Counted from the stretch's first letter, positions 4,015 to 34,415 are shown. The stretch is 34,576 nucleotides of DNA from Jimgerdemannia flammicorona (GCA_003990765.1 RBNJ01000271.1:1-34576); one strand, 5' to 3'. The notes: a model not told the origin generated them from the letters alone. Made by a program: numbers and translations.

Positions 4015-4157
4015 GTAGTATTCTGAAGATTGGTCTTGGGTTCCTTCCTATATTGTATTATAAATTAGATAACCTTTCTATTTGACAAGGTATTCTAGAT
4101 AATTCTTGTAGCCAAATATGTTGAGGATTTGTTCAACTTCATATTCTTCTGTAATAT
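4015..4157 (-). pseudogene. Chromodomain at the integrase C-terminus
   Basis: EEYEVEQILN...EYLVK*KGY...T-I*E...NLQN matches chromodomain YEVExI...YLVKWKGY...TWEP..NL. It is in frame with integrase across the LINE insertion (PLIYVT|EEYEVE). Confidence 0.85.
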
Positions 4158-4319
4158 TCAGGTTATACAACCTTTGGGTAACACTCACAATATTATTTTT
4201 GGAGAAAAGAGACTAGTAATATGGTTACTGACAGACATTCTGAGATATATACTAAGCAGGGTGGCTCAAGTGCATTCAACTGGCAGCATGTGGAGAGGGG
4301 TCCTGGCTTGGGGGGAAGC

Positions 4320-6230
4320 ATGAGGGGTCTGCTAGTGAGAGGATATATGTAGAAGGAGAGGGAGCTGAGTTGGTGGACAGAAGATAGGAAGAGTAAGCTT
4401 TACAGATATAGTGAAGGGGGAACAGCTGGCATCTGAGCTGGAGGGCTGGCTGAGGAAGGGTAAGGAGGCAGTGAAGACTGCAGGGTATGGATGAGCAGCT
4501 CTTAGTAGTGGAGGCAGTGGAGCTAGGGGTATAGGGGCTGAGGTGAGCATGATGGCTGATGGCAATAAGACTGTCAATCTGGAAAAAAATCCAGATGTAA
4601 CTACTGATGGTAGGGCTGAGAGGATGGGTCTTAGATAGATAGGGGATCTGGTGGATGGTATGTATAATAGACCTAGCAGTGGCCTTGTTACTCAAGAGGT
4701 TGATCTTAGAGTTCATAGTTACTTTGTGCTTCCAGGGCTTAGCAGTAATGGTAAAAATGGAGCTGGGACTGATTGCTAAGCAGGTGGCTAGAGCAGTATC
4801 CATGAAGTTTCTGAAGGGTTTAGAAGGAGTAAAGGTGGGCTTTGAGGAGACTGGGCCACTGGAGAATGCACTGAAGACTGGGCTGACTGTTGGGAAGGTG
4901 TGCATCCCAATGGCACACTGCTTGAGATAGGACCCCAGGGTGGTGCAACTGCTGGTAAAAGGGGTGCCCATGGTAATTGCTGTGGAGATGAAGAGGAGAG
5001 TTGTAGAAGTCATGGCCAAGTATAGAGAGGTGATGGATATTGGGTTCTGGGTCTGAGAAGGGATCTCATTTAGGACCAGAGATATTGATATCAGGATTTG
5101 GTTAGCAGGGAGGGAAGCTACCAGGAAGGCTAGAGACTGACCCTCAGTGATGGTCTGGGGGACATTCTTGTGCAAATTAATGAGGGTGAAGAGGAGTAAG
5201 AAGGAGGAAGAGGATTTGTTGGAGGCACTAAAGGAGCTGAGTAGTGTAGTGGAGCAGAGGGTGAAGGCATGGAAGATATATATGAATTGATACATTTGGA
5301 GGTAGTAGATAGGAAGCAGATCTAAGTAGATAAGGGACTGTAGGAAAGATCCCAGAGATACAAGAGATAGAGAGAGCTGCTGGTAAGCCTGGAGAGTAGG
5401 GCAAAGAAGGATGCTAGTGAAATTGAGGATGAAAGAGATACCAAAGTGAATGTCTGAGCTAGTGAGGATAGAGGGAATGTGGGGAAGGGACAAGGAGAGG
5501 ACAAAGAGGTGACTGATAATGACTCATATGCAGATAGTACATTTGAGGTCTGGGAGGACTTCCCTACTCCTACTTCTCTTATCAGGTGAGATCCAGCTTC
5601 AAGGAGGGTGGTAGAGGATGTGCCCATGCAGGGGGTCCAGCAAGTACACTTTGGAGTTTCTGAGGTGATAAAAGGGAGACAAGTGGTGGCAGCTGGTGAG
5701 GATGAGCTGGTGGATATCTCTGAAGAAGAGTGGGATAAGATGGAGAGTATAGGAGCAGATATAGCAATACTGGGTAGAGGGCAGCCAGCAACTCCTGAGG
5801 GGAAGGAAGTGAGAAACCTACTGTAGATGTACCAGATAATGAACAACTTTGCAGCTGAGGAGCTGGAAGAAGTGGACCTAAGAGTAATGAGTGATGAGCA
5901 GTGGGTAAGGATCTTATATAGTAATGGAGTAGTGGAGGCATTGAAGGCAGAGATACTTGCAGTTTTTCTGAAGGAAGAAGGGTATGAGGTTGATAAGGAG
6001 AGAGAGGCTGAGTTGGCAGTTGCTGCTGGTGAGTGGGCCACCTACTGCTGGGCAGAGTATTATGGATTACAGTTCTGGCAGGAGGCCTGCCTGGAGTATC
6101 AAGAAAAAGGAGGATGGGGTAATGACTGAGCTACTGGATAGATTGGAGGCACAAGGGCTGAAGAGGAGGAGGTGTTTGCTGAATACAACCTGGACTTGGT
6201 ACAAGAGGAGATGAATATGAAGCAGTAGAG
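4320..6230 (+). pseudogene. LINE ORF1 (nucleic-acid-binding protein, broken)
   Basis: Fragmented plus-strand ORFs upstream of ORF2 (4655-4930, 5608-6129). They are conserved with copy 2 (21873-22280). Boundaries are approximate. Confidence 0.6.
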
Positions 6231-6259
6231 GATGTGCTTAATATTAAACATCTTTCCTT

Positions 6260-9200
6260 ATGAACAGTACAACCAATATTTTTTCTTTGAATGTGAATAG
6301 ACTATGGAGTTTGTTTCAATATAGGAATATTTTTGCTTGACTGAAGGGATTGGAAGCCAATCTCTTGCTTTTGCAGAATATCTGATGTGAGGATGATTTG
6401 AATAGACTAGAGTGGATGAAGGAATGGAGAGGTGAGGCAGTTTGGAAGGACAAGATTGGGATTCTAGTCCAGAGAGGCAGAGGGGAGGTATGGGATATAA
6501 GGAGTTGGAGAGACAGGCAGGTTTGGGGAGAGTGAATATGAACAGGATGGGAGCTGGTTATAGTGGGATCCTGTTATTGTCCTGCTGTGCAGAGTGAGTG
6601 TGTGGATTGGGTGAAGGGTCTTCAGGAGAGTGGGGCCCTCACAGAGGCTGGAGTGGATATACTTGGTGGGGACTTTAATATGGTCAGAGATGTACTGGTG
6701 AATAGAACTGATGAAGAGAGGGGGGCTGAGAGTAGGAGTGGAGGTCTGGAGACATAGGAGGAAGTAAAGAGGCTGAGTGTACTAGTGGATGCAGACAGGA
6801 GATTGTAGGGTAATAAGAGAGTGTATATGCACTAGGTGAGTGGACTGGGGACAAGGATTGACTAGGTTTTAATGACAAACTGCTGGGGCTTAGATGTTTG
6901 GAAGTCACTAGCAGTTGAATAGTGTCTATGGTCTGATCATTGGGGGTTACTGGGACAGGGGCATTTTGGGGGGAGTGAGGATGGGCCTGGACATTGATAT
7001 CTTAATTTCTCTTTGTTGGACAATAAGGTGCTGTAGAACAAGTAGGCTGAGGATATTTGACAGAGAGTGAAGTGTTGGATACAGTAAGGTCCTCTGGTTG
7101 ATATCAGGTAGATGAGATTGAAAGAGGCTGCTAGAGTCTATTGAGATGAGGCTGATAAGGTGGCCAGAAGACAGCCAAGGAGGATGGTGATGTGGGCTTC
7201 TGCTAGACTGGCTAGGCTTCTGAAAGATTGGGCTGATCTATTGGCCCTGGAGGGGGTGGAGGACTGGAGATTACTGCAGACAAAAAAGGAGATTGGGTGT
7301 TGTGGGAGGAGAAGGAGGCTCAGGTATAGAGTTTGGTGATATGGTTATATTGGCAGGGGCTGGAGGAAGGAGAGAGGCCCTCTAAGTTTCTCATGAGGGC
7401 CCTTCAGGCAAGGAGAGTTAAGCAGAGGTAGGAGGGGGTACTGGATGCTGATAGTCTACTGGTGCATAGTATACAAGATATTCTTGGATTCTTGAAGGAG
7501 AGGTGGAGTGGTTTGTGGAGTAAGGAGGAGGGTGGGGCTAATGCTGCTACTATTGACTATGTTTTGGAGGATTGGCATCTGTCACAAGTTGAAGGGCTGG
7601 GCAACTTGGTGATGCCAGTACAGAAGGAGGAGATTCACCAGGTTCTTGCTGCAACCACACTGGGCATAGCACCAGGGGAGAATGGTCTGCTCTAGGACTT
7701 TTGGAAGAAGATGGTGGGAGTCTCTGGAGTGCTGGGAGAGTTGATGGCACTTTGTGACTTAGTACTACAGTCAGAGAGATGGGTGGGTGAGCAAGATCTG
7801 GGGCTGGTAGTATTGCTTTATAAGAACAAAGGCAGGAGAGAGGACTGGAAGAACTGGTGGCTGATCATGCTACTGGACATAGATAGAAAGTTGATTACTA
7901 AGGTGATGGTGGCAAGACTGCAGAAGGTGGCCCAGCAGGTCTTGGGGGAGGAGTAGTGGGGTTTTGTAGGAGGCTGACTCATTAGGGATGTCACAGCTTG
8001 AGTATATGATATTATTGAGGGGGCATGAGCCTGTGGACTGGATGGGTACCTGGTTTTTCTGGATCAGAAGAAGGCATATGACTATGTTCAGTAGGTCTGA
8101 TTGGTGAAGGTATTGGATAGGATTGGCATCCCTCAGCAGTTCCAAGTGGTAATGGTCAACCTACTGGAAGAGACTAGAGCTGTGCTCATGTATAATGAGC
8201 ATCAAGGAGTGGCTTTCCCTCTGGATAGGGGTATTCTCCAGGGAGACCCACTGTCTTCTATTCTGTATACTCTTTCATTGAAGCTCTTGTTGATAGGATC
8301 TGGCAGAAGATAGTTAGGCTTTCAGTATTTGGCATTGAGTGGAAAGATGGAGCCTTTGCAGATGATATAGTGATTGGTCTGAGATCAATCACTGATGTTG
8401 AGAAACTCAAGGCAATAGTGAAGTGGTATGAGGTACATTTTGGAGCTAAACTCAATCAGTACAAGTATGAGATAATGGTGTTAGGCAATGGTCTGGTGGG
8501 AGGAGATGTCATTGGAACAATTGTCCCTGCTAGAGAGGTAGTGAGATACTTAGGTATCTATCTTTTGGTATATGGGTCAGTCTTGCTGAGAACTTGGTGA
8601 GTGCAGTAAGTTGCAATATGAAGGGAGGCCCTGTAGAGTTGGGTGACCACCACTTGTCTCTGATAGGGCATGTGTCTATTTTGAATGTCTACTGGCTTCT
8701 AAAGCTATAGTATTTGGCTTATCATCTGGACTTTTTAGCCTGGGTGATGAGGAGATTGTTGAAACTGGCCAAAGGGTATATTTGGACTGAGAGAAGAAGT
8801 CAGATTAGCTGGGAAATCTTGTCTTTGCCAGTAACTAAAGGAGGTTTTGGACTAGTTGACTTTCTGAAGAGGTTGCACTGCCTGAGAGCATGGTGGCTGA
8901 AGAGAGCAGTGGAGCTGAGAGGTGGTGGCTGGGTTCCCTTGATGAAGAAGATCTGGAAGATGAGGTCCTCGCTGAGAGGCTCTACTGGTGACTACTCTCC
9001 TTGATTGGGCTTCAGAACAATGGGCATATATAGTATAAGGGCTTCTGGTGGGGGGTAGTGGATAGGGTACACTGTATTGGAATTTGCTGGCAGAGTGATG
9101 AAGGTGAGTTGCCTTAGGGCCTAGCAATGTAGAGATGAGACCATATATTGTTAGGGGGCATTCTCTTAAATGACTTCGATATTAGTGATGGAGTCAAGTG

Positions 9201-9842
9201 CCAGAGAGAGTTAGGACAGGATCTGTGGCCTGATAGATAGCAGCTGGCAGATATCAGAAAAGAGTGAGACTGGAATGGAGCCTGTGTCTAGAGTGCTAAG
9301 GTTAGGCAGTAGTTGCTACTGAAGTATTAGGTGATCTGATAGCATATATTGCAGAGAAATATCATGCTCAACTTTCACTCAGGCCACCTTGTTGCAGGGA
9401 GTAGCTTTGACTGTGAGGAGTACTATAATGTAGAACAGGATGGGGGTTTTGTGCAGATACCAGAATATTGGCTAGGAGAGTGCAAGGTGCTTGGCAACTT
9501 CTGGCTAGCAGTTGGAAATTGATTGGGAGTTGTATATTGGAGAGATAGTGTGAGGGGTTGATGGGAGGATTTGTGAGATATATTGGTAGGGGGGGTTGGA
9601 AAGGAGTGGCTTACTTTAGATTGAGTATTAGCTGTATAAGTGGAGTTGGCAGATCACTGGTTGTTTGTTTTCAAGGATGGAAGGTGTCTAGGCTTGAGGG
9701 TGCAGCTGCTGAGATGAGAAGGGTTTATGGAGGACATCTTGACAGGCTGGTGGCTTGGTTGGGGTCTGCAAGGTGGTTGGTAGCATTATTTGGTGAAGAA
9801 AATCTATGGGCAGAGTGGGGGGAGAGTTGGGGTAGTAGGTGA
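6260..9842 (+). pseudogene. LINE ORF2: AP endonuclease plus reverse transcriptase (broken)
   Basis: Endonuclease motifs IFSLNVN, GGDFN and SDH. RT-region motifs GERPSKF, APGENG, DRKLITK, LDQKKAYD, RGILQGDPLS, AFADD, RYLG and LPVTKGGFGL. Confidence 0.92.
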
Positions 9843-9960
9843 TAAGGTGATTTTTAAGTATAAAGTTATAGAGGGAACTCCCTTAAAGGGATTGAGTAGT
9901 GGGAGGAGATACTGTAACTATATTAATAGACTGATAATAAATGGCAAAGTCCAAGAGATT

Positions 9961-10030
9961 ATAAAATAAAATAAAATAAAATAAAATAAAATAAAATAAA
10001 ATAAAATAAAATAAAATAAAATAAAATAAA
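9961..10030 (+). repeat. (TAAAA)n 3' tail of LINE copy 1
   Basis: 14 perfect pentamers, directly followed by the TSD. Confidence 0.95.
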
Positions 10031-13000
10031 GTAACATATATAAGTGGTTCTGCAGTTCAGTTTGAGAATAGCTCATCATCATTTTCATTATATTACTTGA
10101 GACATTGGACATTGAAGACTGGGTGAATCTTAATAGTATCTGGTAGCACCAATTTGTAGGAAGTTAGAGAGACTTATATAATGACTTTGAATGGTCTAAT
10201 GAATTTGCTATTCAGCTTTGTAGATAGTCTGTACTTGAGATTGTCAACTCAGTATCCTCAGATGTCTAGTAAAACTTTTTCTACAATATCAAAGATTTCT
10301 TCTCAGTAGTGCTAGTTGATATACTGTGACTATTGTTCTTGAGCTTGGAATAAGTTTTCAATTACAATCTGACTCAAATTGTATATTTGGAGTAAGAATT
10401 CTTCAATGGCTTTAACAGTAGAGGGTTCATCAGTGGTTCTGATAAGTATCAGAGAGGTGTTTGGATTTTGTTCAGTATTGGTGAAGAATGGGGCCATTCC
10501 AAGAGAGGCTTGTTTGCTGTTGTTATAGATAAACTCAACTACAGTGAGGTGTTCATGCCAATCATCTTATCTATAGGAAATATAGTTTCTTAGCATTTGT
10601 TCTAGAGTTTGGTTCATTCTTTCAGTTTGATCATCAGTTTCAGAGTGAAAGGCTGTGGATAGTGTAAGTTTTATTCCATGGTGTATATAGAGGGCTTTTT
10701 AGAAATAGCTAGTAAACTTTAGATTTTAGTTACTAACTATAATCTTAGAGAGACCATGATATTGTCAAACAAGAGTGTAGCAATTTCAGGTGCTGTTGCA
10801 GTAGTAGTAGTAGGAACAAAATGGGCCTGTTTACTAAGATAGTCTATGAAGACAACAATTGTATTTTTCTCATTCTTGGTTTGGAGTAGTTGTATAATAA
10901 AGTCTATAGAGATTTTTTTCCAATTAGTGAATAGTACTAGGATAGGGTGGAGTAGGCCAGGTTTTACTAGTGTTGAGAACTTGTTGTATTAATAGACATC
11001 ATAGGAAGTAATATAGGTCTTTAGCTAATCTACCATGTAGGACCAATAGAAGTTTCAGGAAATAACTTTATAGCATTTATCAAATCCTAAATGTCTGGCT
11101 GTAGGGGCATTATGACATTCAAATAGGATAGTCCTTCAAAGATCTTGATTGTAATCTGTTCTTGTAGTAGATAGCATTATCCTTTAGTTAGTATTAATAA
11201 TATCAGATATGCTTATCAATATTGTCACTACTCAAGATTTCTCAGAGTGCTTGAGCTTCTTTGTCATTGACACATACTGTGATAATTTATTCTATTATGA
11301 AGTTGGTAACCAAGGTGAGAGTTTGGATAACTTCTTCAATTAGTGGTCTGGAGATTACATCAGTAACAATATTCTCCTTACTAGGGTGATACTGGATTTT
11401 ATAATCAAAATTGGTGAGAACTTTCATCTATCTGGCTTGCTTTTATGAAAGGGTAGCTTGGGTCTTGATGTTGACTAATGATTTGTGGTCTCTCAGCACT
11501 GTGAAGTGTGTTCCTTTAAGATAAGATCACCATTTAATCAAAGTATCTACAATGGCTAGCATTTCCTTCTCATGGATTGTATAGTTGATTTTAGTATCAT
11601 TGAACTTATGGGAATGATAGGCCACAGGGTGTCCTTCTTGCATAAGCACTGCTCCAAGAGCTAGGTCAGAGGCATTAGTGATAACTTTATATGAGAGAGT
11701 AGAGTTTGCTGCTTGAAGTACTAGAGTGATTATTAAGGTATCCTTTAGAGCATAAAAGGCTGTATCTTGTTCAGGTCCCCAATTTACAAGATTTTTGAAG
11801 TCTTTTTCTTGCTTTGTGGTCCAAGACTGTTCTTCTTTCTTGCTATACTTAGTCATTTGGATCAGGGCAGTAGCAATCTTGGCAAAATTGGCAACAAATT
11901 GCTGGTAATAATTTGCTAGTCCCAGGAATGACTGGAGGTCCTTCAACTTCTTAGGTCTGGGCCATTTCTTGATCATAGAGATTTTGCTGGAGTCCACTTT
12001 GATTCTATTGGGCATGATAATGTATCTAAGGAATTGAATTTTCTTTAGGAAGAATTCACACTTGCTGAGTTTTGCAAAGAGTCAGTTTTCTTGGAGCTTC
12101 AGTAGTACTAGTTTAAGATATTCCAGATGTTCCTCTAGGGTTTTGCTGAAGACCAGGATGTCATCAATGTAGACAACAATAAATTTGTCTAGGTATTGGT
12201 GCAGGATGGTATTCATCAGTATCTGGAAGATTTCAGGAGCATTAGTTAAGCCAAAGGGCATAACCAAGAACTTGAAATGTCCATAGTAAGTTCAGAAGAC
12301 AGTCTTGTAGATGTCTTCTTCTTTCATGGCAATTTGCTAGTAACTATTTCATAGATTGAAAGAGCTCATAAATTGTAGATTGGTAAGTCTATCAAATATT
12401 TCATCAATTCTGGATAATGGGTAACAGTTCTTAATGGTCTGTTCATTGAGGTCATGATAATCAATGCACATTCATAGGTCTTCTTCTTTCTTGATAATAA
12501 AGAGGACTGGTGCTCCATAGGGTGATATATTGAGTCTAATGAATCCTTGTTCTAGGAGTTCATCAATTTCTTTCTTGAGTGCATTAATTTCTCTTGGAGA
12601 CATGTGATAGATTGACTTGAAGGCTGGCTTGGCATCTGGGATGGTCTTGATGGCATGGTCTACTACTCATTTAGGTGGTAGGCCTTTTGGGAGTTTCTTT
12701 GGAAATATATCTTAGAATTTCTAGAGTAAGGGTCTAACACAGCTATCAACTTTGGAAAAGTCTTCTTCAAGGTTCTTGGGTTCTCCTTTGGAAGGTCAGA
12801 TGGAGATAGCAAAGAGAGGGTATTTCTTGGCCAATTTCTTAAACTGTAGCTTATTGATGCAGGTGATCTTTGATCTAGGGTCACTAGAACTGAGTAGGTC
12901 TCTTTTATCTTACAGTTTGAAATTGTGACATCTCTTCTTAATGGTCAGAGAATGGTTTACCCAATCAATCATAAGGTTCTCCTGTTTTAACCATGGAGTT

Positions 13001-15937: not shown

Positions 15938-17423
15938 TATAAGAGGGTTACTTGTTAGGGTAACTGTTACATAATTCTGGAAGAGTTTTCTAAAAGTTCT
16001 AGAAAACCATTTTCTTAACATCAAGATCAATTTTATATAGTGTATGTCCTCTATGCTTATTGATTTCAAAATCAGATTGACATCTCAACCAAAGTCCCTT
16101 TTTGGACCAGTTCTGGATGTTCAGGATTTTTGTATTTTAGGAAGTTTAAGAAACTAAGACCAGTTTAGTTAAATTAGTATATTGCTGTAGACAATACTCA
16201 ATTAGGAAATTTCATGATGGAGTTAGGAGTAAGACCTAATGGGGAGTAGATTTACTTAAGAGTAGTATGTGGGTTATTAAATAGATTTATTTACTTTCAT
16301 AATATTATTAGTTGTGTGAAGAGATATTGTGGGGAAGTGTTTAGGAGTTATATTTGGATTGTTCTTATCTGAGATTCTGAGGTCTGGGAGAGGGGGTATT
16401 TATATTAATAGGAGGCTATCTGGACTATGCTAAATATGAGTATAGTACTTAGTACTTTGCTGAGTTAGAATATAGTCATGTAGTATAAGTGTGAACTGAT
16501 ATATCAAGAGATCATCTGACTGCTGAGTCAGTTTGCAGTCACATTATATAAGGTTAATCTATCTATACTAATGACTGCTAAGCTATTTATAGATTTTGAC
16601 ACTGTCTGGATAGTCTTCAATAATATTATCATTGATAATATTATCTCTGATAAAGTCTGAGCAGTTTTCTGACTTCTGATATCATTAGTTTCAAAGGTAT
16701 CATCATATCTGCCTCTTGTAAAATTAAAGCTATCCTCAGTAGTAGTGGTTGTACAAGAATAACAGGTCTTGGTTCTCTTTTTTTTTTGAACTACTGGTGC
16801 ATTTGTGAGGACTGGCCATTCTTGTCTAGGGTGAGGGCTCCCATTGTTATGGCTGGGGGGTTCAAACCTCTCAAAAATGATATTTTCTATAATCTGAGGT
16901 AATTTCTAGTAGTAATATCTATCATATGGATGGACTTGAGATTGGTTTTGACAATGTTGGCTTTTTTGAGTTTCAGATAAAGTATCCATCATTCTCCAAT
17001 AGAGATGATACAGATAGAGTGAATAGAGTTATTCAAATGTATTTTGCTTCTGCTAAGTAATGAGGTCTTATATTGTTGTAGTGTATCTTAGTCTTGAGTT
17101 AATAAGTATAGTTTATATACCTTTGATGGATGAGATAGGGTTCTTCTCATTCTAGTTTGAGTTTGGTACTTCAGTTTTCTTTTATAATAATATAGTATAC
17201 TAAGACTGGTTATCTTAATGAGTAGAGGTTCAGGATTGATCTTATAGTTATAGTACTTCTTTTGATATTCTTGTGTCTTGGTAGTAAGTTCTTGTACTTG
17301 CTGACATATTTTATATAACCAGGGGATCTCTTCAGTAGTTTGTTTTGTAATCTTGCATATGGTTTCTGAATTAGTTCTGAGGGTAACATGTAATTTCAGT
17401 AGTTTAGAGATTGTGTACTTATA
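15938..17423 (-). repeat. Gypsy 5' LTR
   Basis: Collinear with 2056-3545. Termini have decayed to TATAAG...CTTATA. Minus-strand TATA box at 16397-16404. Confidence 0.95.
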
Positions 17424-21040: not shown

Positions 21041-21297
21041 GTTATAATAGTATATATTACAAGCTTTGTTTGAGAATTTAATAATATAAATATGATCTTA
21101 GTAATTATTTATAGTATTATAATCTTGAATTTACCCTTGTGGCTTCATATACTCTATCAAGTCACATTTGTTAAGGAGATTCATTATACAGAATATCTAG
21201 ATTATATAATCTTTCCTATTGAAGATCAGGATACATCTCTTGGCTATATTTATACTTATAACTGAGACTATATTTCTCTACCAGACATCTTTCTCCA
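21025..21297 (-). repeat. Possible copia PBS and remnant 5' LTR
   Basis: Minus-strand TTATGAGC near 21033-21040 resembles the GGTTATGAGCC half-tRNA-iMet PBS of Ty5/copia-type elements. No partner LTR is in the window. Confidence 0.3.
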
Positions 21298-22281
21298 GTA
21301 ACATTCAGATTACACAACCTTTGGGCAATACTCACAACATTATTTTTAGAGAAAAGAGACTAGTAACATGGCAACTGATAGGCATTCTGAGGTGTGTACT
21401 GGGTAGGGTGGCCCTAGCATATTTGACTGGCAGTATGTGGGGAGAGACCCTGGCTTAGGGGGAACTATGAGGGGTCTGCTGGCAGGAGGATATGGAAGGG
21501 AAGAAAGCTGAGTTGGTGGATAGAGGACAGAGAGGACAAGCTTTACAGATATGGTGAAGGGGGGACAGCCAGCATCTGGGCTAGAGGGCTGGCTGAGAAA
21601 GGGTAAGGAGGTGGCAAAGACTGCAGGGTGTGAGAGAGCAGCCCTTGGTAGTGGGGGCAGTGGAGCTGTGAGTATAGGAACTGGGGTGTGTGTGATGGCT
21701 GATAGCCAATCTGGAAAAAAATCCAGATATGACTACTAATGATAGGGCTGAGAGGATAGGGCTTAGATGGATAGGGGACCTGGCAGATGGTGTAATGGGC
21801 CTGGTGGTGGCCCTGTTACTCAAAAAGTCAATCTCAGAGTTTGTAGTTATATTGTACTTCTAGGGCTTAGTAGTGATGGTGAAAATAGTGCTAGGGCTAA
21901 TTGCTAAGCAGGTGGCTGGAGCAGCATCTATGAAGTTTCTGAAGAGTTTGGAAGAAGTGGAGGTGGGCTTTGAGGAGGCTGGGCTACTGGAGGATATGCT
22001 GAAGACTGGGCTGACTATTGGGGAGGTATATGTCTCAATAGCATGCTGCTTGAGATAGGACCCCAGGGTAGTACAACTGCTGATGAAAGGAGTGCCCACA
22101 GTGACTGCTGTGGAGATGAGGAGAAGAGTCAAGGAAGTCATGGCTGAGTATAGAGAGGTGGTGAATGTTGGGTTCCAGATCTGGGAAGGGACCTCATCCA
22201 GAACTAGAGATGTTGATGTCAGGATTCAGTTGGCAGAGAGAGAAGCTACTGAGAAGGCTAGAGACTGGTCTTCGGTAATAG

Positions 22282-22616
22282 TGGAGAAGGAGGGCCCAGT
22301 GAGAGTCATGAGAGCAAACCCAGAGCCAGTATTAAAGTGAATGGAAGATATGTGGAAGAGCATGTATAAGGAAGATGAACAAAGAACATAACCAAAAATA
22401 CATCAGCCATTTATTGCCATGTAAAAATGAAGTCCTTATATACAAAATATGATATCCCAAAAGAGAGGATGTGCCACAACTCAGAGCAAACCAAATTAGG
22501 AACTATATGACTACCAGAGATAAGTAGAGATAAAGAGAGAGCCAATCCCAGTTGCAGGATAAAACTCACAAATAAACACAAATAAAACAAATCTAAATTG
22601 AGATTAAAAAACATCC
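22282..22616 (-). repeat. Inverted partial pLTR
   Basis: Reverse complement of 22768-23102 and 26406-26740. Starts TGGAGAAGGAGGGCCC. Confidence 0.92.
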
Positions 22617-23102
22617 TTGTCCCCTCTGGGGTCTTGCACTCACTCCAGGGTCTCAGCCTTACTCTGCTCCCCTCTGCTGCCTTCAGCCCCTTGCTTCACT
22701 CAGGCTCGCTGTGGCTTACTCCATTTCAGCCTCACTCCTCACTTGCACTCACCCCTCTAGGGTCTGCAGATGTTTTTTAATTTCAATTTGGATTTGTTTT
22801 ATTTGTGTTTGTTTGTGATTTTTATTCTGCAACTGGGATTGACTCCCCCTTTATCTCTGCTTATCTCTGATAGTTATGTGGTTGCTAATTCAGTTTGCCC
22901 TAAGTTGTAGCATGTCCTCTCTTTTGGGACATCATATTTTGTATATAAGGACTGCATTTTTATATAGTAATAAACAGCTAATGCATTTTTGGTTATATTC
23001 TTTGTTTGTCCCTGTTATATACATACTTCTATATATCTTCTATTTGCTTTGACACTGGCTCTGGGTTTGCTCCCATGGCTCCTGCTGGGCCCTCCTCCTC
23101 CA
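22603..23102 (+). repeat. 5' pLTR of the PLE
   Basis: Direct repeat of 26241-26740. Contains TATATAAG, AATAAA and the first codons of the ORF (ATG at 23075). Confidence 0.92.
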
Positions 23103-26082
23103 CTGCTATACCATCTGTCCTCAGGGTCTCTGCCTCTATTGACAAGGTTATGGACAAGGTTCTTTCTCCTCCTCCTCCCCTTGCTTTCATCTCTGCCACT
23201 GTCTTATTCAAGACCTATGTCTTATCTGCCATCCTTTCTCTCTCCTTGGATCTTTGTCCTTTTGGTCATCCACTCTTCTCTCAGTTCCAGTTAGTCCTTG
23301 CCCTCTCTGCCAAGGAGGTTTATCTCTGCTATAATGTTGATATTGTCACTCTATCTGCCATCTGCTACTCTGTTCTCCCTGAGGCCCATTGCCAAGCCCT
23401 CTTTAAAGAGGTTTGCACCACCACTGCTGCTGCCAAGCTTGTTGTCACTGATGCTGCCACTACTTCCACCACCACTGCTTCTACCTTCTTTCACTATGCC
23501 TGTGCCATTTTCATGACCTTTGCTTTCTCTCACCTTGCAGATACTGCTCCTTTCTGTGACTTTGTCATCCAAGACATTCTCTCTGCCACTACCAACATTG
23601 ACACTATTCATCACTTCCTCCTTGCTGGAACCTCTTTTGTTACTTGTCTTCACAAGCAGGAAATGTCATATGCTGCCACTGCTGCTTGCACTACCACCAC
23701 CACTCCCTTGCCTACCTCCCCTGAGATTTCAGTCTCTGAGGCCATCCATGCCAAGGCTTATGCCACTGCCCACACTTAAGTCCATTTCTTTGTCACTGCC
23801 ACTGCCAAGGCTCTCACCAAGACCCCCACTAATTCCAACCAGGCTTTGTCAGCTTCTTCTCAGTCCCCCTCCCCTGCTAAGGCTTCCTCCTCCATTTCTC
23901 TCACCCCCAAGCATGGCCACCAACTTGGTTCTTGCCCTGTCAGGGCCTGGCCCTATGCTGTCTGCTCTGGTCACCTCCACCATACCTACTGGTGCCTGGC
24001 TAAGTCCATCTGCCCCCATGGTGGTGTCTTTTGTACTGCTGTCTCTTCTGCTGCTTACTCTCCTTCTGCCTCCTCCACTAGCTTCTCTACCTGTGCCCCC
24101 AAATGTAAGGGCTGCACAAAAGCCTGTGGCCACAAGGTCTGGCACTCTGACAGAGTGTGCTTCTGTTTATCAGGCTTGCTACCTTCAAAAAAAGTCAGAG
24201 GGAAGGGGAAGGCCTCCCACTCTTAAACTTCCCCCTAGCATGGTTCTCCCCCAGTGTCCCCATCCCTTCTCAGATTCCATTGTCACTTCTGGTATACTCT
24301 GAGTGGTTCCTCATACTGTCTCCCCTTTGTCTTTCCCCAGTTACTCATCCTGAATTTTCAGGTTTATTCTTCTCTTGGAATACTTTTGTCTCCTCCTTTT
24401 TCTTCAGCTGACTGCTCTCTTTCTTCTTTTCAAGTCTTTGCCTTATCTTTGGGTCCTCACTTTGTTTTTCCTGCAACTCTCTTATAATTCTCCTTCACTG
24501 ATCTGACTTATCTTACATGTTTTTGTCATACTCTTGACCTTGTCATCTTCTTTGAGGATCATAGTGAGATGCTCTCTCACTATTATATTTCTAGCAATTG
24601 GGTTCCTGCTCTCAATATCTCTTCACACTGTGTATTCCTTGATATGGCTTACTCACTATCTATTTCTGGACATGCTCACTCTTGCTTGATTTCAGACTGT
24701 ACCATATGTACTATGCTTAAATTAGTCAAGCAATTGTCTTTATATTTGCTCACAGTCACTGATAAGAATCAAGATTTTGCACTGATTTCTAAGTCACTCT
24801 ACCTTGATGGCCTTTCTGCCCTCCTTTGAGCTGTGGCTTACAAGCCTAGCACTCTTGGATTGGATGAGGTTCTTGCTCTCCTTTGGGTTTCTCTAGCTCA
24901 TGCTAGGTTACTTTCAGATTCTCCTTTTGTAAACTCCATTTTTAACTTCTTCCAGGACTCTTTGTCCTCAGTAGACATTTGTCTTCTGGTTTTTTATGCT
25001 CTTCCTAAAGTCCACAAGTCTACTTTGGCCTGTGTTCCATTATGGCTGCTTATTGCTCTCCTATCACTGAGATTTCAAAGTGGTTATCCTGCTTCTTCCT
25101 CTCTTGGATGACTCTTTTTTAATACCATCTTGGGCCTAAGTATACAATTCTTCATGACACTCAGGAGCTCACCCTTCTCTGCTCCACCATTGTGCCTATT
25201 TAACATTTTTTCCATTTGGCCTCTAGTGACTTCTCTTCCTTCTACACTGCTATTCATTTTGATGAGATTGATGATTGTCTTTGCTTCTTGAGTTCTATTG
25301 TCTTCTCTTTGGATTCCCCAGTTTCATTGGCTTCTATCATTGATCTTATACTTTTTGTCTGTAGCTCAAATTATTTTGAGTTGGTCCTTAGCTCCTTTTA
25401 CCAGACTTCTGGTATTACCATGGAAATGAATTGTGCCCCCACTCTTGCCAACCTCATTGGCCTGACTCATGAACTTTGTATGATATGTAATCCTTCTTCA
25501 CCTCTTTCTATTATGTCCTGGGCTGGGGATATCTTCTTTTGCCAATACATTGATGACTTCATTATTCTTGCTGTTGCTGGTGTTGATATTTCTATTGTAT
25601 TCTGTGGTATCTACCCTCTCCATCATTCCATTACTTGGGTATATGGTATAATTAGTATTTTCTTTTTGGACCTATCTATTTCTCTTTCCTCCTTTTGAAC
25701 TATTGTTTATTCTCATTTTTCCCATTCCCAACAGTTCCCTGGCTTCTATTCCAATTATTCTCATTGCACTCTTCTTGAATGTATTTGTGGTGAGGTTCAT
25801 TATCTTACATTATGCTGCTCCCATCATTCTGATTGGGTGTCTGCTGTTCAGGTTCTTGGCAACTTCATGGTCTATCATCATGCCTACCCTATTTCTATTA
25901 TTTGTGATCTGCTTGCTTCTATTGAATGGTCTGTTGTTCACTCTTCCCCTCTCTCTCCCCTTTACCCCCCCTTCCTTCCCTCTCTCCCCTCTTATCCCCT
26001 CTGTACCCCCTCTTCATTCCCACTTCTGAATCTTGTCATATGTACTATTCAATCATGCTTACTGAGTCACTTAATGCCCTGA
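23075..26082 (+). pseudogene. PLE polyprotein (~1000 codons): N-terminal extension plus Penelope-type RT and thumb
   Basis: ORF pieces starting 23006, 23846, 24254, 24569 and 24833 share one frame, with one shift before 25216. Motifs: LSLGPHF, VTDKNQD (DKG region), FYALPKVHK, DFSSFYTAI, YQTSGITMEMNCAPTLANL, QYIDDF and FLDLSI, plus thumb GEVHY...CCS...YP. Confidence 0.88.
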
Positions 26083-26240
26083 CACCATCCTATGCTCTTC
26101 TCTTTCATACCATAGACTTTTGTCTCTTTCTTGATACTCTCTGATAGCTCATTTGCATCTTCCTTCTGTTTCCTCTTTAATTCATCACTCTCATTTTGTG
26201 TTTTTGTCATCTTTTGGTATCTCCAGCTCTGCTGGAGAGG

Positions 26241-26740
26241 ATTAAAAAACATCCTTGCCCCCTCTGGGATCTTGTGCTCACTCTGGGGTCCCAGCCTTAC
26301 TCTGCTCCCCTCTGCTGCCTTTGGCCCCTTGCTTCACTTGGGCTCACTGCAGCTTGCTCTGTTTCAGCCTCACCCCTCACTTGCACTCAACTCTCTAGAG
26401 TCTGTGGATGTTTTTTAATTTCAATTTGGATTTGTTTTGTTTGTGTTTATTTGTGATTTTTATCCTACAACTGGGATTAGCTCCCCCTTTATCTCTGCTT
26501 ATCTCCAGTGGTCATGTGGTTCCTAATTTGGTTCACTCTAAGTTGTGGTGCATTCTCTCTTTTGGGATATTATATTTTATATATAAGGACCACATTTTTA
26601 CATGGCAATAAATGGCTGATGCATTTTCAGTTACATTCTTTGTTTGTCCCCTTTATACATGCTCTTCCACATATCTTTCATTTGCTTTAACACTGGCTCT
26701 GAGTTTGCTCCTATGGCTCCTGCTGGGCCCTCCTCCTCCA
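26241..26740 (+). repeat. 3' pLTR of the PLE
   Basis: Direct repeat of 22603-23102. Confidence 0.92.
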
Positions 26741-27074
26741 CTTTTATATATAAGGACCACATTTTTACATGACAATAAATGGCTGATGCATTTTCAGTTA
26801 TGTTCTTTATTTATCCCCCTTATACATGCTCTTCTACATGTCTTCCATTTGCTTTGACACTGGCTCTGGGTTTGCTCCCATGACTCCTGCTGGGCTCTCC
26901 TCCTTCACTTTTGTATATAAGGACTACGTTTTTACATGGCAATAAATGGCTGATGCATTTTTGGTTATGTCCTTTGTTCATCCCCCTTATATGTACTCTT
27001 CCACATATCTTCCATTCACTTTGACACTGGCTCTGGGTTTGCTCCCATGGCTCCTGCTGGGCCCTCCTCCTCCA
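26574..27074 (+). repeat. Three tandem 167-bp copies of the pLTR 3' end
   Basis: Units end at 26740, 26907 and 27074. Each runs from TTTT[A/G]TATATAAGGAC to (approximately) GCCCTCCTCCTCCA. Confidence 0.95.
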
Positions 27075-30000
27075 TAGATAAAGGAATGGGGAGGTGAGGC
27101 AGTTTGGAAGGGCAAGGTTGGGATTCTGATCTAGAGAGGCAGAGAGGAGGTATGGGATGTGAGGAGCTGAGGAGATAGGCTGGTTTGGAGAGAGTGGATA
27201 TGAACAGGATAGGAGCTAGTTACAGTGGGATCCTATTACTGTTCTGCTGTGTGGTGTGAGCATGTGGATTGGGTGAAGGGTCTCCAGAAGAGTGGGGCCC
27301 TTGCAGAGGCTGGAGTGAATGTGCTCAGTGGAGACTTTAATATGGTCAAGGATATACTGGTGGATAGAACTGATAGAGAGAGGGGGGCTGAGGGTTAGAG
27401 TGGAGGTCTGGAGGCATGGGAGGAGGTAGAAAGACTGAGTGCACTAGTGGATGCAGGCAGGGGATTCCGGTAATAGAAGAGTGTACATATACTGGGTAAG
27501 TGGACTGGGAATAAGGATTGACTGGGTTTTGATAGTGAACTGCTGGGGCTTAGATATTTGAAAGTCACTAGCAGTTGAATGGTGTCTGTGGTCTAATCAT
27601 TGGGAGTTACTGGGACAGGGGCATTTTGGGGGAAGTGGGGATGGGCCTGGACATTGGTACCTTAATTTCTCTTTGTTGGACAATAAGATACTATAGGACA
27701 AGTGGGCTGAGGACATTTGGCAGAGGGTGGAGGGTTGGATACAGGAAGGTGCTCTGGTTGGTATTAGGTAGATGAGATTGAAAGAGGCTGCTAGAGTCTA
27801 TTGAGGTGAGGCTGGCAAGGTGGCCAGAAGATAGAGGAGGAGGAGGGTGATGTGGACTTCTACTAGACTTGAAAGGCTTCTGGAAGATTGGGCTAGTCTG
27901 TTGACCCTGGAGGGGGTAGAGGACTGGAGATTGCTGTGGGCAAAAAAAGAGGTTAGAGAGCTATAACAGGTGTTATGGGAAGAGAAAGAGGTACAGGTAT
28001 AGAGTTTGGAGGCATGGTTACATTGGCAGAGACTGGAGGAAGGAGAGAGGCCCTCTAAGTTTCTCATGAGGGCCCTTTGGGTGAGGAGAGTTAAGCAGAG
28101 GTGGGAGGGGGTACTGGATGCTGATGGTCTACTGGTGCACAGTATACAAGACATTCTTGGATTGTTGAAGGAGAGATGGAGTGGTTTGTGGAGTGAGGAG
28201 GAGGGTGGGGCTGATGCTGCTATTATTGACCATACTTTGGAGAATTGGTACCAACTACAAGTGGAATGGCTGGGCAGCCTAGTGGTACTAATACAGGAGG
28301 AGGAGATTCACTAGGTTCTTTCTATGACTATATTGGGTATAGTATCAGGGAAGGATGGTCTGTCCTGAGACTTTTGAAAGAAGATAGTGGGAGTCCTCAG
28401 AGTGCTGGAGAGCTGATGGCACTTTGTAACTTGGTACTACAGTCAGAGAGATGGGTGGGCAAGCAGGATCTGAGGCTGGTGATGCTGCTTTATAAGGATA
28501 AAGGCAGGAGAGAGGACTGGATGAATTGGTGGCTATCATGCTACTGGACATGGATAGAAAGTTGGTTATTAAGGTGATGGTGACAAGGCTGTAGAAGGTG
28601 GCCCAGCAGGTCTTGGGGGAGGAGCAGCAGGGCTTTGTAGAAGACTGGCTTATTAGAGATAGTACAGCTTGGGTGCATGGTGTTATTGAGAGGGCACAAG
28701 CCTGTAGACTGAATGGGCACCTAGTTTTTCTAGATCAGGAGAAGGTATATAACTGTATTTGGCAGATCTGGTTAGTGAAGGTATTGGATAGGATTGGCAT
28801 TCCTCAGCAGTTCTGAGTAGTAATGATCAATCTACTGGAAGGAAGTAGAGCTGCACTCATGTATAATGGGCATCAAGAGGTGGCTTTCTCTCTGGATAGG
28901 GGTATTCTCCAGGGGAACCCACTGTCTTTTATTCTGTATGCTCTTTTATTGGAGCCCTTGTTAGATAGGATCTGGCAGAAGATAGTAGGGCTTTCAGTAT
29001 TTGGGATTGGGTGGAAAGTTGGAGCCTTTGCAGATGATATAGTGGTTGGTCTGAGATTGATCACTAATGTTGAGGAACTCAAGGTGACAGTGGGTGGTAT
29101 GAGGTGCATTTTGGGGCTAAACTTAATTGGCACAAGTATGAGATGATGGTGTTAGGCAATGGCCTGATGGGAGGGGATGTCATTGGAACAATTGTCTCTA
29201 CTGGGGAGGCAGTAAGATACTTAGATATCTATCTTTCAGTATATAGGTCAGTCTTGCTGAGAACTTGGTGGATGCAGTGAGTTGCAATATGGGGGAAGGC
29301 CCTGCAGAGTTGGGGTGGCTGCCACTTGTCTCTAGCAGAGTGTATATCTATTTTGAATGTCTACTGACTTCCAAAGCTATGGTATTTGGCTTATTAACTG
29401 GACTTCCCAGCCTGGGTGGTGAAGAGATTATTGAAACTGGTCAAAGGGTAGATCTGGGCTGGGAGAAGGTGTCAGATTAGCTGGGAAATCTTGTCTTTGC
29501 CAGTAGCTAGAGGGGGTCTTAGACTGGTTGACTTTCTGAAGAGGTTGTACTGCCTGAGAGCATGGTGGCTGAAGAGAGCAGTGGAGCTGAGAGGTGGTAG
29601 CTGGGTTCCCTTGATGAGGAAGGTCTGGGAGATGAGGTCTTCACCAAGAGGCTCTATAGGAGATCTACTCTCCTTGGTTGGACTTCAGAACAATGAGTAT
29701 ATGTGGATAAGAGCTTCTGGTAGAGGATAGCAGATGGGGTATACTGTATTGAAATTCGCTGGCAGGGAGATGAAGAAGAGCTGCCTTGGGGCCTAGCTAT
29801 GTAGAGATGAGACCATATATTGTTGGAGGGAGTCCCCTTAAATGACTTTGATATTAGTGATAGAGTCAAATACCAGAGGGGGGTTAGGACAGAATCTGTG
29901 GCCCAGCAGATAGCAGCTGGCAGATATCAGAGAAGAGTGGGACTAGAATAGGGTCTGGGCCTGGATTGTTGAGGTTAGACAGTAGTTGCCACTAAAGTAT

Positions 30001-30209
30001 TAGGTGATCTGGTGGCATATATTGTAGAGGAATATCATGCTCAACTTTCACTCAGGCCACCTTATTGCAGGGAGAAGCTTTGACTATAAGGAGTGCTATA
30101 ATATATGTAGAACAGGAAGGGGGTTTTGTATAGATATCAGAACATTAGCTAGGAGTAGTGCTCCACAAACCTGACTCGATTAACCTGAAACCCGATCTGT
30201 AACACAGCC

Positions 30210-30500
30210 AACCCAGAATTAGACGTCACCCATCTTTAACCCAACCCAGAATTATATGTCACCCATCTTTAACCTGACTCAGAATTATACATCACCCATC
30301 TTTAACCTGACCCAGAATTGTACATCACCCATCTTTAACCCGACCTGGAAAGATACATTACCCATCTTTAACCCAACCTGGAAATGTATGTCACCCGACC
30401 CATTATTTACCCTTAACCTAAACCTGAACCCAACCCCTGAACCTGACCCTGAACCTGACCCCTGAACCCGACCCTGAACCTGACCCTCTGAACTCTGCTC
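30210..30500. repeat. hAT subterminal repeats: 33-bp unit x~5.5, then AACC[C/T]G-type hexamers
   Basis: Unit ~AACCCAGAATTATACGTCACCCATCTTTAACCC at 30210-30400. GAACCT/GACCCT-like hexamers at 30410-30500. Confidence 0.85.
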
Positions 30501-33244: not shown

Positions 33245-33626
33245 GATTCAGCGTATTCTGTGTTGAGCAAGGTTTGCAATGACGTTTGAGCGAGGTTTGT
33301 GGTGTATTTGAGTGAGATTTGCAGCGAGGTTCGAGCAAGATTTGCAAGCGAGATTTGCAAGTGAGATTTGCATGTAAGATTAAAGCGAGATTTGCATAAG
33401 CCAGGCTTTGCAAGCCTTACACTTGCAAGTCTGGACAAGCTCAGTCACAAGCTGATATGACATATATATAAGCTGATATCACATGATATCAGCTATTAGC
33501 TGAGCTTGCAAGTACAAGGCTTGCAAAGCCTGGCTTATACAAATCTCGCTCGAACCTTGCTGTAAATCTCGCTCAAATGCACCACAAACCTTGCTCAATC
33601 GGGGCTTACGCAGAACCCGCTGAATC
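33245..33626. repeat. Long imperfect inverted repeat (foldback 1)
   Basis: Termini GATTCAGCG...CGCTGAATC. Inner arms ATAAGCCAGGCTTTGCAAGCCTT / AAGGCTTGCAAAGCCTGGCTTAT. Confidence 0.9.
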
Positions 33627-33627
33627 A

Positions 33628-33853
33628 TGCAGAGAGGAGTGGAATACAGTGAGGAAAGCTCCAGATTGCAAGCGTAAGCATAAGTATAAGCATAAGTATA
33701 AGCTTTGCTCCACTCAGTCTGACAAGCTGATAATAAGCTAATATTATGTAATATCAGCTATCAGCTGAGCAGAGCAAAGCTTGTGCTTGCACTTATGCTT
33801 ATGCTTACACTTGCAATCTGGAGCTTTTCTCACTGCATTCCACTCCTCTTGCA
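33628..33853. repeat. Long imperfect inverted repeat (foldback 2)
   Basis: Arms GAGGAGTGGAAT...AAAGCTCCAGATTGCAAG / CTTGCAATCTGGAGCTTT...ATTCCACTCCTC. Confidence 0.9.
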
Positions 33854-34261
33854 TTCCACTCCTCTTGCATTCCACTCCTCTTGCACAACCCTCACATATT
33901 CCTCCACCTCCCTCACCCTCATTCCTCAGATTGCAAACAACATGCAATTTAGAAATGGGTTTCGAAAGAGATTTCGAAGAGATTCAGAAAGAGCTTCTGA
34001 AAGAGATTTTGGAGAGATTCCAAAAGAGCTTCTGAAAGATGTTATAGCTTTTGAACATTTAAGATATTGAAAGCTTACTTTTGCCTCTCATTCTTTTCAC
34101 CTCATCCTTCACTTTGTCTCATCCTTCGCTTTGCCTCACTTAATTCACTGCTATGTTGAGAAAACGTGGATATGACTGTCTGGCCAATAAGTATTTACTT
34201 GGCCCCCCCCAAGCTCGATGTGCTTCAGCTCACCATCCCAAAGCTTGGTACCCTAAAGATG

Positions 34262-34415
34262 CCCAGCTTGCTGACACCCAGCTGCTGAGCTTGCTGACAC
34301 CCAGCCTGCTGAGCTTGCTGACACCCAGCCTGCTGAGCTTGCCGACACCCAGGTTGTCAAGCTCACCAACTCCCAGCTTGCTGACCCTCAGCTCCCTGAT
34401 CTCCAGCTTGACCGC
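34262..34415. repeat. ~24-bp tandem repeat AGCTTGCTGACACCCAGCCTGCTG, degenerating rightward
   Basis: Read directly: about 4 clear units plus degenerate ones. Confidence 0.85.

Follow-up and report, generated by a model that had tools for sequence, protein, structure and literature searches.

The 34,576-nt stretch of DNA that was analysed (the window) carries two copies of a LINE, both on the + strand. Copy 1 (4144..10038) serves as an internal reference; with stops read through as X, its Pfam matches are RVT_1 (E 1e-10) and a weak AP-endonuclease match (Exo_endo_phos, E 0.062), and it ends in an (ATAAA)n tail at 9961-10038 (TRF). Copy 2 is present in two parts, a 5' part at 21291..22281, corresponding to copy 1 4144-5154 with 82% identity (168 transitions, 10 transversions), and a 3' part at 27075..30161, corresponding to copy 1 6413-9483 with 86.4% identity (377 transitions, 40 transversions). 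Blastn pairs 21291-22267 with copy 1 4144-5139 (80.7%) and 27077-30161 with copy 1 6415-9483 (85.4%), and fine alignment places the limits of homology at ~22281 (copy 1 ~5154) and ~27075 (copy 1 ~6413). Consequently, ~1,258 bp of LINE (copy 1 5155-6412) is absent from copy 2. The lost segment does belong to the LINE; it shares the G-richness of the remaining LINE, the weak Exo_endo_phos match of copy 1 begins within it, at ~6284, and no second occurrence of it was found anywhere in the window. Measured from copy 1, the left and right fragments of copy 2 differ by 1.0% vs 1.3% in transversions and by 17.0% vs 12.3% in transitions, and the equal transversion divergence fits one interrupted LINE copy. 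An origin of the two pieces from different LINE copies, as their identities (82.0% vs 86.4%) might have it, was set aside, since the gap is entirely due to transitions.

The sequence that interrupts copy 2 is a 4,793-bp insert (22282-27074) with the standard layout of a Penelope-like element (PLE), i.e. an inverted, 5'-truncated pLTR, a direct pLTR, an ORF and a second pLTR. The inverted copy (22282..22616, - strand) is the reverse complement of 26406-26741, with 86% identity to the 3' pLTR and, across 166 nt, 90% to the final tail unit, and its outer end is the natural 3' terminus of the element. It overlaps by 15-17 nt (22600..22616, no strand assigned, sequence read directly) with the upstream direct pLTR of ~502 bp (22602..23103, + strand, blastn). 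This overlap is an internal inverted repeat of the pLTR, in which 26240-26254 pairs with 26406-26420 across ~152 nt. The 5' region of the element body (23104..24397, + strand) has no recognisable homology, with no Pfam match in six frames and no tblastn match from 54 relatives, and could be UTR or an unrecognised ORF1. It is followed by a decayed ORF (24398..26079, + strand) and by the downstream pLTR (26240..26741, + strand, repeat comparison). The direct pLTRs are 85.8% identical over 507 nt (22602-23104 vs 26240-26742, blastn), and the repeat unit 23104-26741 measures 3,638 bp. Three tandem 167-nt terminal units (26575..27074, + strand; TRF and alignment) form the tail, the last one closing the insert; TRF returns a period of 167, 3.0 copies and 89% matches. 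Partial tandem pLTR copies combined with an inverted 5'-truncated copy, as in published descriptions of PLEs, were thus found here. The tail has two tandem 167-nt copies beyond the standard PLE layout. A snap-back (hairpin) origin of the inverted arm was considered and rejected; it would not put the outer end of the arm exactly at the 3' terminus.

The ORF was delimited by HMMER, tblastn, alignment, ORF list and translation. It comprises an N-terminal conserved region with TDKNLG, a 'DKN/DKG' motif, an RT core (LPKVHK, YIDDF, FLDLS) and a thumb. Its decay shows in a frameshift near 25039 and in two in-frame stops, one at 25201-25203 and one at 25696-25698. The part at 25204-26079 matches 54 proteins in phmmer at E<=1e-3 (best E 5.4e-46, 39% identity), and these relatives map to 24398-26079 on the + strand by tblastn. 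The only named close relative is a Gigaspora margarita protein, and distant endonuclease-bearing (EN+) PLEs are still matched (P0029 5e-11, P0040 1e-12). The motifs LPKVHK, YIDDF and FLDL, which we take to be PLE-type motifs, align with those of the relatives, and in the tree the insert clusters with PLE-type proteins, the PLE-specific GIY-YIG being present in some of them. Judged by its sequence, the insert is a PLE. Pfam returned no family at E<=1, RVT_1 included, from six frames of the insert with stops as X, and a word-indexed protein search with the 164-aa RT ORF against longer proteins drew 563 candidates, none of which scored. A Ty3-like RNase H ORF neighbours the insert; in the ESM Atlas it matched only generic eukaryotic clusters, most often of Streptophyta or Basidiomycota.

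The left end (22282...) and the right end (...27074) of the insert are reverse complements over 166 nt with 90% identity, and a longer inverted match joins 22276-22616 to 26406-26746 (341 nt, 86%); the repeats of the insert are far beyond chance. Alignment of five copies of the 167-nt terminal unit, all five of which close with ...GGGCCCTCCTCCTCCAC, places both outer ends of the insert at most 2 nt from the natural end of the unit. At the left junction the reverse complement of the element finishes in CCAC and is followed by LINE sequence, and at the right junction the element finishes in CCTCCA before LINE sequence resumes. The outer termini at both junctions are element 3' ends in opposite orientation. 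No TSD is visible in the flanks of the insert, the left junction offering only a 2-nt GT ambiguity, and no telomeric repeat was found at either junction (dodecamer with at most 2 mismatches; 4 matches vs 4.0 expected by chance, all elsewhere). The earlier note had described the same element end at both junctions in opposite orientation, neither TSD nor telomeric repeat at either of them, and copy 1 ~5155-6412 as missing exactly at the insert. These observations were all reproduced, by the inverted match, by flank inspection and the chance-level motif count, and by blastn together with fine alignment.

All repeated parts share 84-91% identity and 0.6-1.5% transversion divergence, and this alike divergence fits a single event. 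A rearrangement after insertion, in which two opposite PLE insertions ~1.26 kb apart were fused by deletion or one insertion was followed by a flanking deletion, could draw on the deletions that old TE nests commonly suffer and on the upstream pLTR, the most divergent of five tail copies (80-86% to the others). However, it needs two or three events vs one known PLE architecture, its flanking deletion must stop at most 2 nt from the element terminus, and the inner junction coincides exactly with the inverted repeat inside the pLTR, just as it does when a PLE inserts in one event. Together with the alike transversion divergences, these features make such a history improbable. We give somewhat less credence still to an assembly artefact, i.e. 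a chimeric join of inverted arm, body and LINE flanks. Tandem and inverted PLE structures are known to be mis-assembled (PMC8557442; PMC3846280), but the two arms differ here by 10-20% and are hence not collapsed copies of one sequence, the flanks belong in collinear order to a single LINE and show equal transversion divergence, and the structure matches a published, PCR-validated architecture (PMC3846280).

No GIY-YIG domain was found in six frames of the insert (Pfam, E<=1), and a PLE-EN profile, which detects 14 of the 99 collected proteins, stayed at or below 0.2 bits throughout all six frames of the window. The three closest relatives (P0004, P0002 and P0056, predicted proteins) have ends at most ~22 residues apart, just past the linker motif and just before the position that GIY-YIG occupies in EN+ PLEs, and none of them gave a Pfam match to GIY-YIG. 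P0004 and P0056 start with M ~190 aa ahead of LPKVHK and have no N-terminal EN. In the insert, only ~160 nt lie between the end of the thumb alignment and the pLTR, too little to accommodate a linker and EN. In an RT tree of 78 rows, which has no named Athena or Coprina reference, the insert pairs with P0002 (SH-aLRT 99) within a 29-row set (SH-aLRT 97) holding no EN+ row, and all 12 EN+ rows fall into one 21-row clade (SH-aLRT 96) with the insert outside it. The insert and its nearest relatives seem, from these comparisons, to belong to an RT-encoding PLE lineage without GIY-YIG endonuclease. As in Athena and Coprina, reportedly described as EN-deficient PLEs by Gladyshev and Arkhipova in 2007, no endonuclease domain was found.

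These results bear on an ordinary EN-dependent PLE integration, with EN supplied in trans (by another PLE or the AP-endonuclease of a LINE) or later lost, with nicks in both strands, and with a chance 1.26-kb deletion such as some EN-dependent LINE insertions bring about. The architecture of the insert is identical to that of EN+ PLE insertions, 15-bp overlap included, and TSDs are also missing from some of the latter (PMC3846280); an EN+ PLE protein is able to cut both strands and to extend them (PMC11167929), and decay has left one frameshift and two stops in the RT region. An endonuclease could have acted in trans. Still, no frame of the window gives an EN signal, the three close relatives stop short of the EN position, the RT lies outside the clade of all 12 EN+ rows and the interval from thumb to pLTR has no room for the domain, and we regard this explanation as unlikely.

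The best reading of the locus is a break-primed insertion, which we give an even chance and which rests on one old, decayed copy. Two DNA 3'-OH ends ~1.26 kb apart in the resident LINE, the sides of a break or gap and not made by the element, would each have acted as primer for reverse transcription starting from the 3' end of PLE RNA, with two re-initiations of the RT on the tail at the right-hand end. The two minus-strand cDNAs would then have paired via the 15-17-nt inverted repeat within the pLTR, each acting as template for the other, and this pairing would have sealed the gap with no TSD and with the intervening LINE sequence lost. Insertion and deletion would accordingly be simultaneous, the 3'-OH ends would have formed without an endonuclease, and the cDNAs would have had each other as partners. 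We infer break repair because EN is absent, TSD is absent and the target is deleted, all at one locus only.

The earlier note had also taken the twin inverted termini as evidence of a break. This part was not borne out, as such termini are canonical in EN+ PLEs (PMC3846280; PMC8557442). Pen2a_Av of Adineta vaga has two direct pLTRs and an adjacent inverted pLTR with a 15-bp overlap with the direct one (PMC3846280), Craig et al. 2021 state that the PLE 5' end 'often' has an inverted 5'-truncated copy (PMC8557442), and the inverted/direct pLTR layout of EN+ PLEs is described as occurring with or without TSDs (PMC3846280). The layout therefore gives no argument for a break and, mirror-image ends being normal for PLEs, the locus offers no more than one possible instance of insertion at a break that already existed. 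Likewise, priming on both strands by a PLE has in vitro support, an EN+ PLE protein having been seen to cut as well as extend the two target strands (PMC11167929); two-strand cDNA priming is therefore a general PLE model and not a signature of break repair. Of the interpretation in the earlier note, the assignment to PLEs, the lack of a GIY-YIG EN in the insert and in the predicted proteins of its nearest relatives, the junctions at element 3' ends, the missing TSD and the loss of ~1.26 kb stand, and the inverted termini and two-strand priming fall away as evidence. Kilobase target deletions accompany EN-dependent TPRT of L1 too, and target deletions give no proof of EN independence.

A further explanation makes copy 2 a chimeric retrocopy, in which RT left the LINE RNA at ~6413, copied PLE RNA or cDNA and returned at ~5154. 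The PLE does replace collinear LINE sequence in the same orientation, and the transversion divergence of the pLTRs (1.0%) is near that between the LINE copies (1.0-1.3%). However, two internal template switches and an antisense PLE template for the inverted arm would be needed, and the full PLE-type architecture arises more simply from the PLE's own machinery; we consider this origin very improbable. Beyond the single locus, break-primed insertion leads to a tentative idea, which we consider less likely than not, namely that an EN-less PLE lineage, perhaps one of arbuscular-mycorrhizal or other fungi, gains interstitial sites by capturing chromosomal breaks at both ends. Each end would prime cDNA on the RNA 3' end, and the cDNAs would cross-prime via the pLTR stem. 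Among the papers retrieved on endonuclease-independent PLEs and double-strand breaks, none seems to report a PLE across an interstitial break.

The known aids of EN- PLEs for the use of DNA ends, telomeric repeats and the hammerhead, were not found in the insert. No reverse-complement telomeric repeats are present at the element 3' end in any of the five copies with their common closing sequence, both junctions are LINE sequence, and there is no telomere array within the 34.6-kb window. At 30409-30493, 3.3 kb downstream, there is a degenerate tract of C-rich hexamers. A hammerhead motif in the pLTR is typical of PLEs but absent in Naiads. Rfam gave no match at the gathering score and no hammerhead among 5 matches at E<=10, and the hammerhead core motif was absent from the sense strand, transitions allowed. 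With CpG o/e at 0.00-0.02, CpG decay could have hidden or destroyed a hammerhead ribozyme. A metagenome scan kept 79 loci, all distant (22-31% identity), none of which has the element 3'-end motif, and they are therefore uninformative on the insertion mode of the insert's family; 3 of the 79 have an EN match, while repeats of 80 bp or more occur in direct orientation in 47 and in inverted orientation in one.

The locus thus presents ordinary PLE architecture in a further EN-lacking PLE, with break repair as a plausible origin. At an internal chromosomal site, an RT-only PLE apparently built the complete inverted/direct pLTR structure. If true, PLE architecture would be independent of the element's own GIY-YIG endonuclease and a product of RT and RNA, contradicting the proposal of Craig et al. 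2021 that the cleavage properties of EN determine the tandem and inverted architecture (PMC8557442). PLE RTs could then act as RNA-templated gap fillers, and EN- PLEs would not be bound to telomeres but could mend internal breaks while sacrificing target sequence, which bears on the use of DNA ends by PLE and telomerase-like RTs. Genome-wide spread of EN- PLEs is already in print for PLE-X (PMC8557442); with that, one decayed copy and a textbook architecture, the locus is a lead for a census and not a finding.

Among known systems, the canonical PLEs (Pen2a_Av, Penelope, Naiad) share with the insert the ORF between direct pLTRs, the inverted 5'-truncated pLTR with an overlap of ~15 bp, the head-to-head arrangement with element 3' ends outermost and the partial tandem repeats (PMC3846280; PMC8557442). 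Unlike the insert, they have a GIY-YIG EN and usually TSDs of 8-10 bp; the insert also differs in lacking a 30-40-bp 'tail' extension and a detectable hammerhead, and in the 1.26-kb target loss. Athena and Coprina resemble the insert in the RT-only ORF, the 'DKN/DKG' N-terminal region, the thumb and the flanking repeats and, as proposed here, in depending on DNA ends not made by the element (PMC8557442; PMC13159263). In contrast, they carry short reverse-complement telomeric repeats together with a hammerhead close to the 3' end, and are described at or near telomeres, whereas the insert bridges two interstitial LINE ends (PMC8557442; PMC13159263). PLE-X of Chara and Selaginella is likewise interstitial without GIY-YIG (genome-wide in Chara, targeted to 28S rDNA in Selaginella), but has a CxC motif and canonical hammerheads and is nested within the N-terminal-EN clade (PMC8557442). 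The N-termini of P0004 and P0056 show no evident CxC motif. EN-independent L1/Alu insertion at double-strand breaks and L1 twin priming, reportedly described by Morrish 2002, Sen 2007 and Ostertag and Kazazian 2001, are said to share with the insert the missing TSD, the target deletion, the pre-existing 3'-OH ends and the priming by two target 3' ends. L1 is of another element class, and in its twin priming the second primer is said to anneal inside the RNA, whereas both cDNAs of the insert would start from the RNA 3' end.

The window holds nested eukaryotic transposable elements, among them a LINE in two forward-strand copies; the analysis draws on this one stretch, on related proteins and metagenome sequences, and on published papers. 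LINE copy 1 (~4144-10038) matches RVT_1 (E 1e-10) and, weakly, AP endonuclease, and has an (ATAAA)n tail, and copy 2, delimited by self-comparison and alignment to copy 1, is split into two pieces (21291-22281 and 27075-30161) by an insert of 4,793 bp (22282-27074). Fine alignment to copy 1 places the junctions at copy 1 positions ~5154 and ~6413. The earlier note had reported positions ~5155-6412 missing exactly here, and the alignment agrees: ~1,258 bp of LINE is absent at the insert, and this segment is found nowhere else within the window. It is real LINE sequence, with the strong G skew of the LINE, and in copy 1 the endonuclease match starts inside it. The two pieces of copy 2 display equal transversion divergence from copy 1 (1.0% and 1.3%). 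A chimeric LINE retrocopy arising via template switching might account for the gap in copy 2, but is given very little credence.

A Pfam search of the insert gave no match in any frame, and PLE-type (Penelope-like element) RT motifs were recognized by eye on the + strand. An index-free HMMER search, queried with 25204-26079 (one stop coded as X), brought up 54 proteins with E ≤ 1e-3, led by P0002 (E 5.4e-46, 39% identity). The relatives map to 24398-26079 on the + strand (tblastn), with a frameshift near 25039 and in-frame stops at 25201-25203 and 25696-25698. The only named close relative is P0056, a 554-aa protein of Gigaspora margarita, a species for which the consulted part of PMC13443276 describes annotated and expressed PLE families. 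Judged from sequence, namely the RT and the flanking repeats (pLTRs), the insert is a PLE, as had been proposed. Pyrimidines strongly dominate its coding (+) strand (23104-26240; A 0.175, C 0.29, G 0.15, T 0.39), which leaves wrong frames open and gives an RT with many S, L, F and C residues; transitions alone cannot produce this 32% purine content. The LINE (4144-9483) is G-rich on the same strand (G 0.34, C 0.13).

The element was further suggested to lack the GIY-YIG endonuclease (EN). The three relatives reaching the C-terminus in the RT protein alignment (P0004, P0002 and P0056) end within ~22 residues of one another, stopping just past the linker motif after which EN-containing (EN+) PLEs carry EN, and none of them has a GIY-YIG match in Pfam. 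In P0004 and P0056 the initial M lies ~190 residues upstream of LPKVHK, and the TDKNLG motif is present with EN absent. A PLE-EN profile built from four EN+ matches recognizes 14 of the 99 collected proteins and scored ≤ 0.2 bits everywhere in the six frames of the window; even distant EN+ PLEs are still matched by the RT of the same decayed copy (1e-11 to 1e-12). The thumb alignment ends at 26079 and the pLTR starts at 26240, only ~160 nt further on. A quick maximum-likelihood RT tree (78 rows, built without named Athena or Coprina references) paired the window with P0002 (SH-aLRT 99) in a six-member clade with P0056, P0011, P0004 and P0034 (93). This clade falls within a 29-row set (97) containing no EN+ row, and all 12 EN+ rows sit in a single 21-row clade (96). 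Together, the relatives' ends, the Pfam and profile searches, the tree and the short gap before the pLTR support the suggestion: the insert probably belongs to an EN-lacking PLE lineage, the absence in the relatives being read from predicted proteins.

The body of the insert (23104-26239, from self-comparison) lies between direct pLTR copies (22602-23103, equal to 26240-26741; 85.8% identity, unit length 3,638 bp). An inverted arm (22282-22616) is the reverse complement of 26406-26741 (86%, self-comparison), and the last 167 nt are tandemly triplicated at 26575-27074 (TRF: period 167, 3.0 copies). The arm, running to 22616, and the direct pLTR, starting at ~22600, share an overlap of 15-17 nt, which corresponds to an inverted repeat inside the pLTR (26240-26254 versus 26406-26420, ~152 nt apart). 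Alignment of the five copies of the 167-nt unit places both outer ends of the insert within 2 nt of its natural end, ...CCTCCTCCAC; consequently both junctions are element 3' ends, as the earlier note had claimed. Its statements on the flanks likewise held: no target-site duplication (TSD) was found at the junctions, where the only ambiguity is a 2-nt GT on the left, and telomere-motif matches in the window are at chance level (4 versus 4.0 expected), none of them at a junction. Hammerhead motifs were not detected in the insert.

The twin inverted termini had also been taken as a sign of break repair, and this did not hold up. Craig et al. 2021 (PMC8557442) state that PLEs often insert as partial tandems, giving rise to pLTRs. 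As described in part of Arkhipova et al. 2013 (PMC3846280), the EN+ element Pen2a_Av has its ORF between two pLTRs plus an adjoining inverted pLTR with a 15 bp overlap with the direct one, a layout which the insert reproduces in detail, including the overlap. The same source records inverted-pLTR copies without TSDs, inverted junctions with palindromes, and a Pen2 copy within a non-LTR element whose insertion was judged TSD-less against a 76%-identical copy. Moreover, a purified EN+ PLE protein cleaved and extended both target strands in vitro (PMC11167929, in the portion consulted). The twin-terminus structure is thus not special: two cDNAs that start at the RNA 3' end, primed from the two target strands, belong to the general PLE picture and are no mark of break repair.

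What the locus does combine is an EN-less element and lineage, no TSD and a ~1.26 kb loss between two priming sites. A break-primed, EN-independent insertion would proceed as follows. A break or gap in the LINE would offer two 3'-OH ends, which would be trimmed back and would each prime on PLE RNA, with possible microhomology of 2 nt at the left junction and none at the right. On the right side, the RT would re-initiate twice on the tail, and the two minus-strand cDNAs would then pair via the pLTR stem, each templating the other. This is the simplest single-event account, and we regard break-primed insertion here as an even call. Against taking it as established, there is a single copy and its architecture is EN-neutral. 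In L1, large target deletions also occur during EN-dependent TPRT, and an endonuclease could act in trans. As a rival, EN-dependent integration or an EN acting in trans is unlikely. The DNA-end devices of known EN-lacking PLEs (reverse-complement telomeric repeats, hammerhead) are not detectable in the insert, and EN-lacking PLEs with a genome-wide distribution have already been described (PLE-X in Chara; part of PMC8557442). More tentatively, RT and pLTR stem alone may build the PLE architecture, such that EN-lacking PLEs patch internal breaks, a generalization that is possible but doubtful.

The repeats of the window are nearly CpG-free (observed/expected 0.00-0.03), and across 4144-9483, 21291-30161 and 22602-27074 nearly all differences between repeat copies are transitions (Ts:Tv counts of 168:10, 377:40 and 61:5, the first two for the left and right pieces of LINE copy 2). 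Among the five tail copies, most derived singletons are C>T (17) or G>A (7), together 24 of 33, and changes occur at CpA, CpC and former CpG, rarely at CpT. This suggests cytosine-deamination hypermutation, which looks RIP-like or methylation-driven. By transversions alone, repeat copies diverge by only ~1%. The repeated parts are 84-91% identical, with transversion divergence of 0.6-1.5%; among the tail copies, the outermost two form the most similar pair (89.8%) and share 3 of the 14 two-versus-three splits, a weak signal. A single event fits these identities and divergences as well as the equal divergence of the LINE pieces. That a later rearrangement produced the structure is distinctly improbable, and an assembly artefact very improbable.

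Elsewhere, the match of LINE copy 2 to copy 1 ends at 30161, ~550 nt before the tail. A 33-nt satellite (30178-30396, ~5 copies) follows. After it comes a degenerate tract of C-rich hexamers/12-mers (CCCTGA/ACCTGA; 30409-30493, start ...CCCTTAACCTAAACC), perhaps the decayed remains of an interstitial telomere-like array, perhaps just a microsatellite. Between the LINE copies, an open 184-aa frame (11530-12081, - strand) with RT_RNaseH_2 (E 3e-22) and RT_RNaseH matches is assigned by these domains to a Ty3/gypsy-type LTR retrotransposon; its Atlas look-alikes are generic eukaryotic clusters, most commonly Streptophyta or Basidiomycota. A dispersed ~1.5 kb repeat pair in direct orientation (2058-3543 and 15940-17421, 85-88% identity) has ORFs with no Pfam match. 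Short inverted repeats (54-85 nt, 87-89%) cluster at 33283-33849 and 33963-34384 with several short tandem arrays (12-48 nt), the only part of the window with weaker CpG depletion (o/e 0.31). Among 79 metagenome loci with distant PLE-type RTs, a PLE endonuclease is detectable in three, pLTR-like direct repeats (≥ 80 bp) in 47 and an inverted repeat (≥ 80 bp) in one (L047); environmental sequences seem to hold many RT-only PLE relatives.

In the literature, judged largely from abstracts, no description of a PLE bridging an interstitial break was found. The insert is not a member of the EN+ PLEs. With Athena and Coprina it has their defining lack of EN in common, but not their telomeric repeats. 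Functionally, it is similar to L1 insertion at breaks without EN, together with the double priming typical of PLEs.
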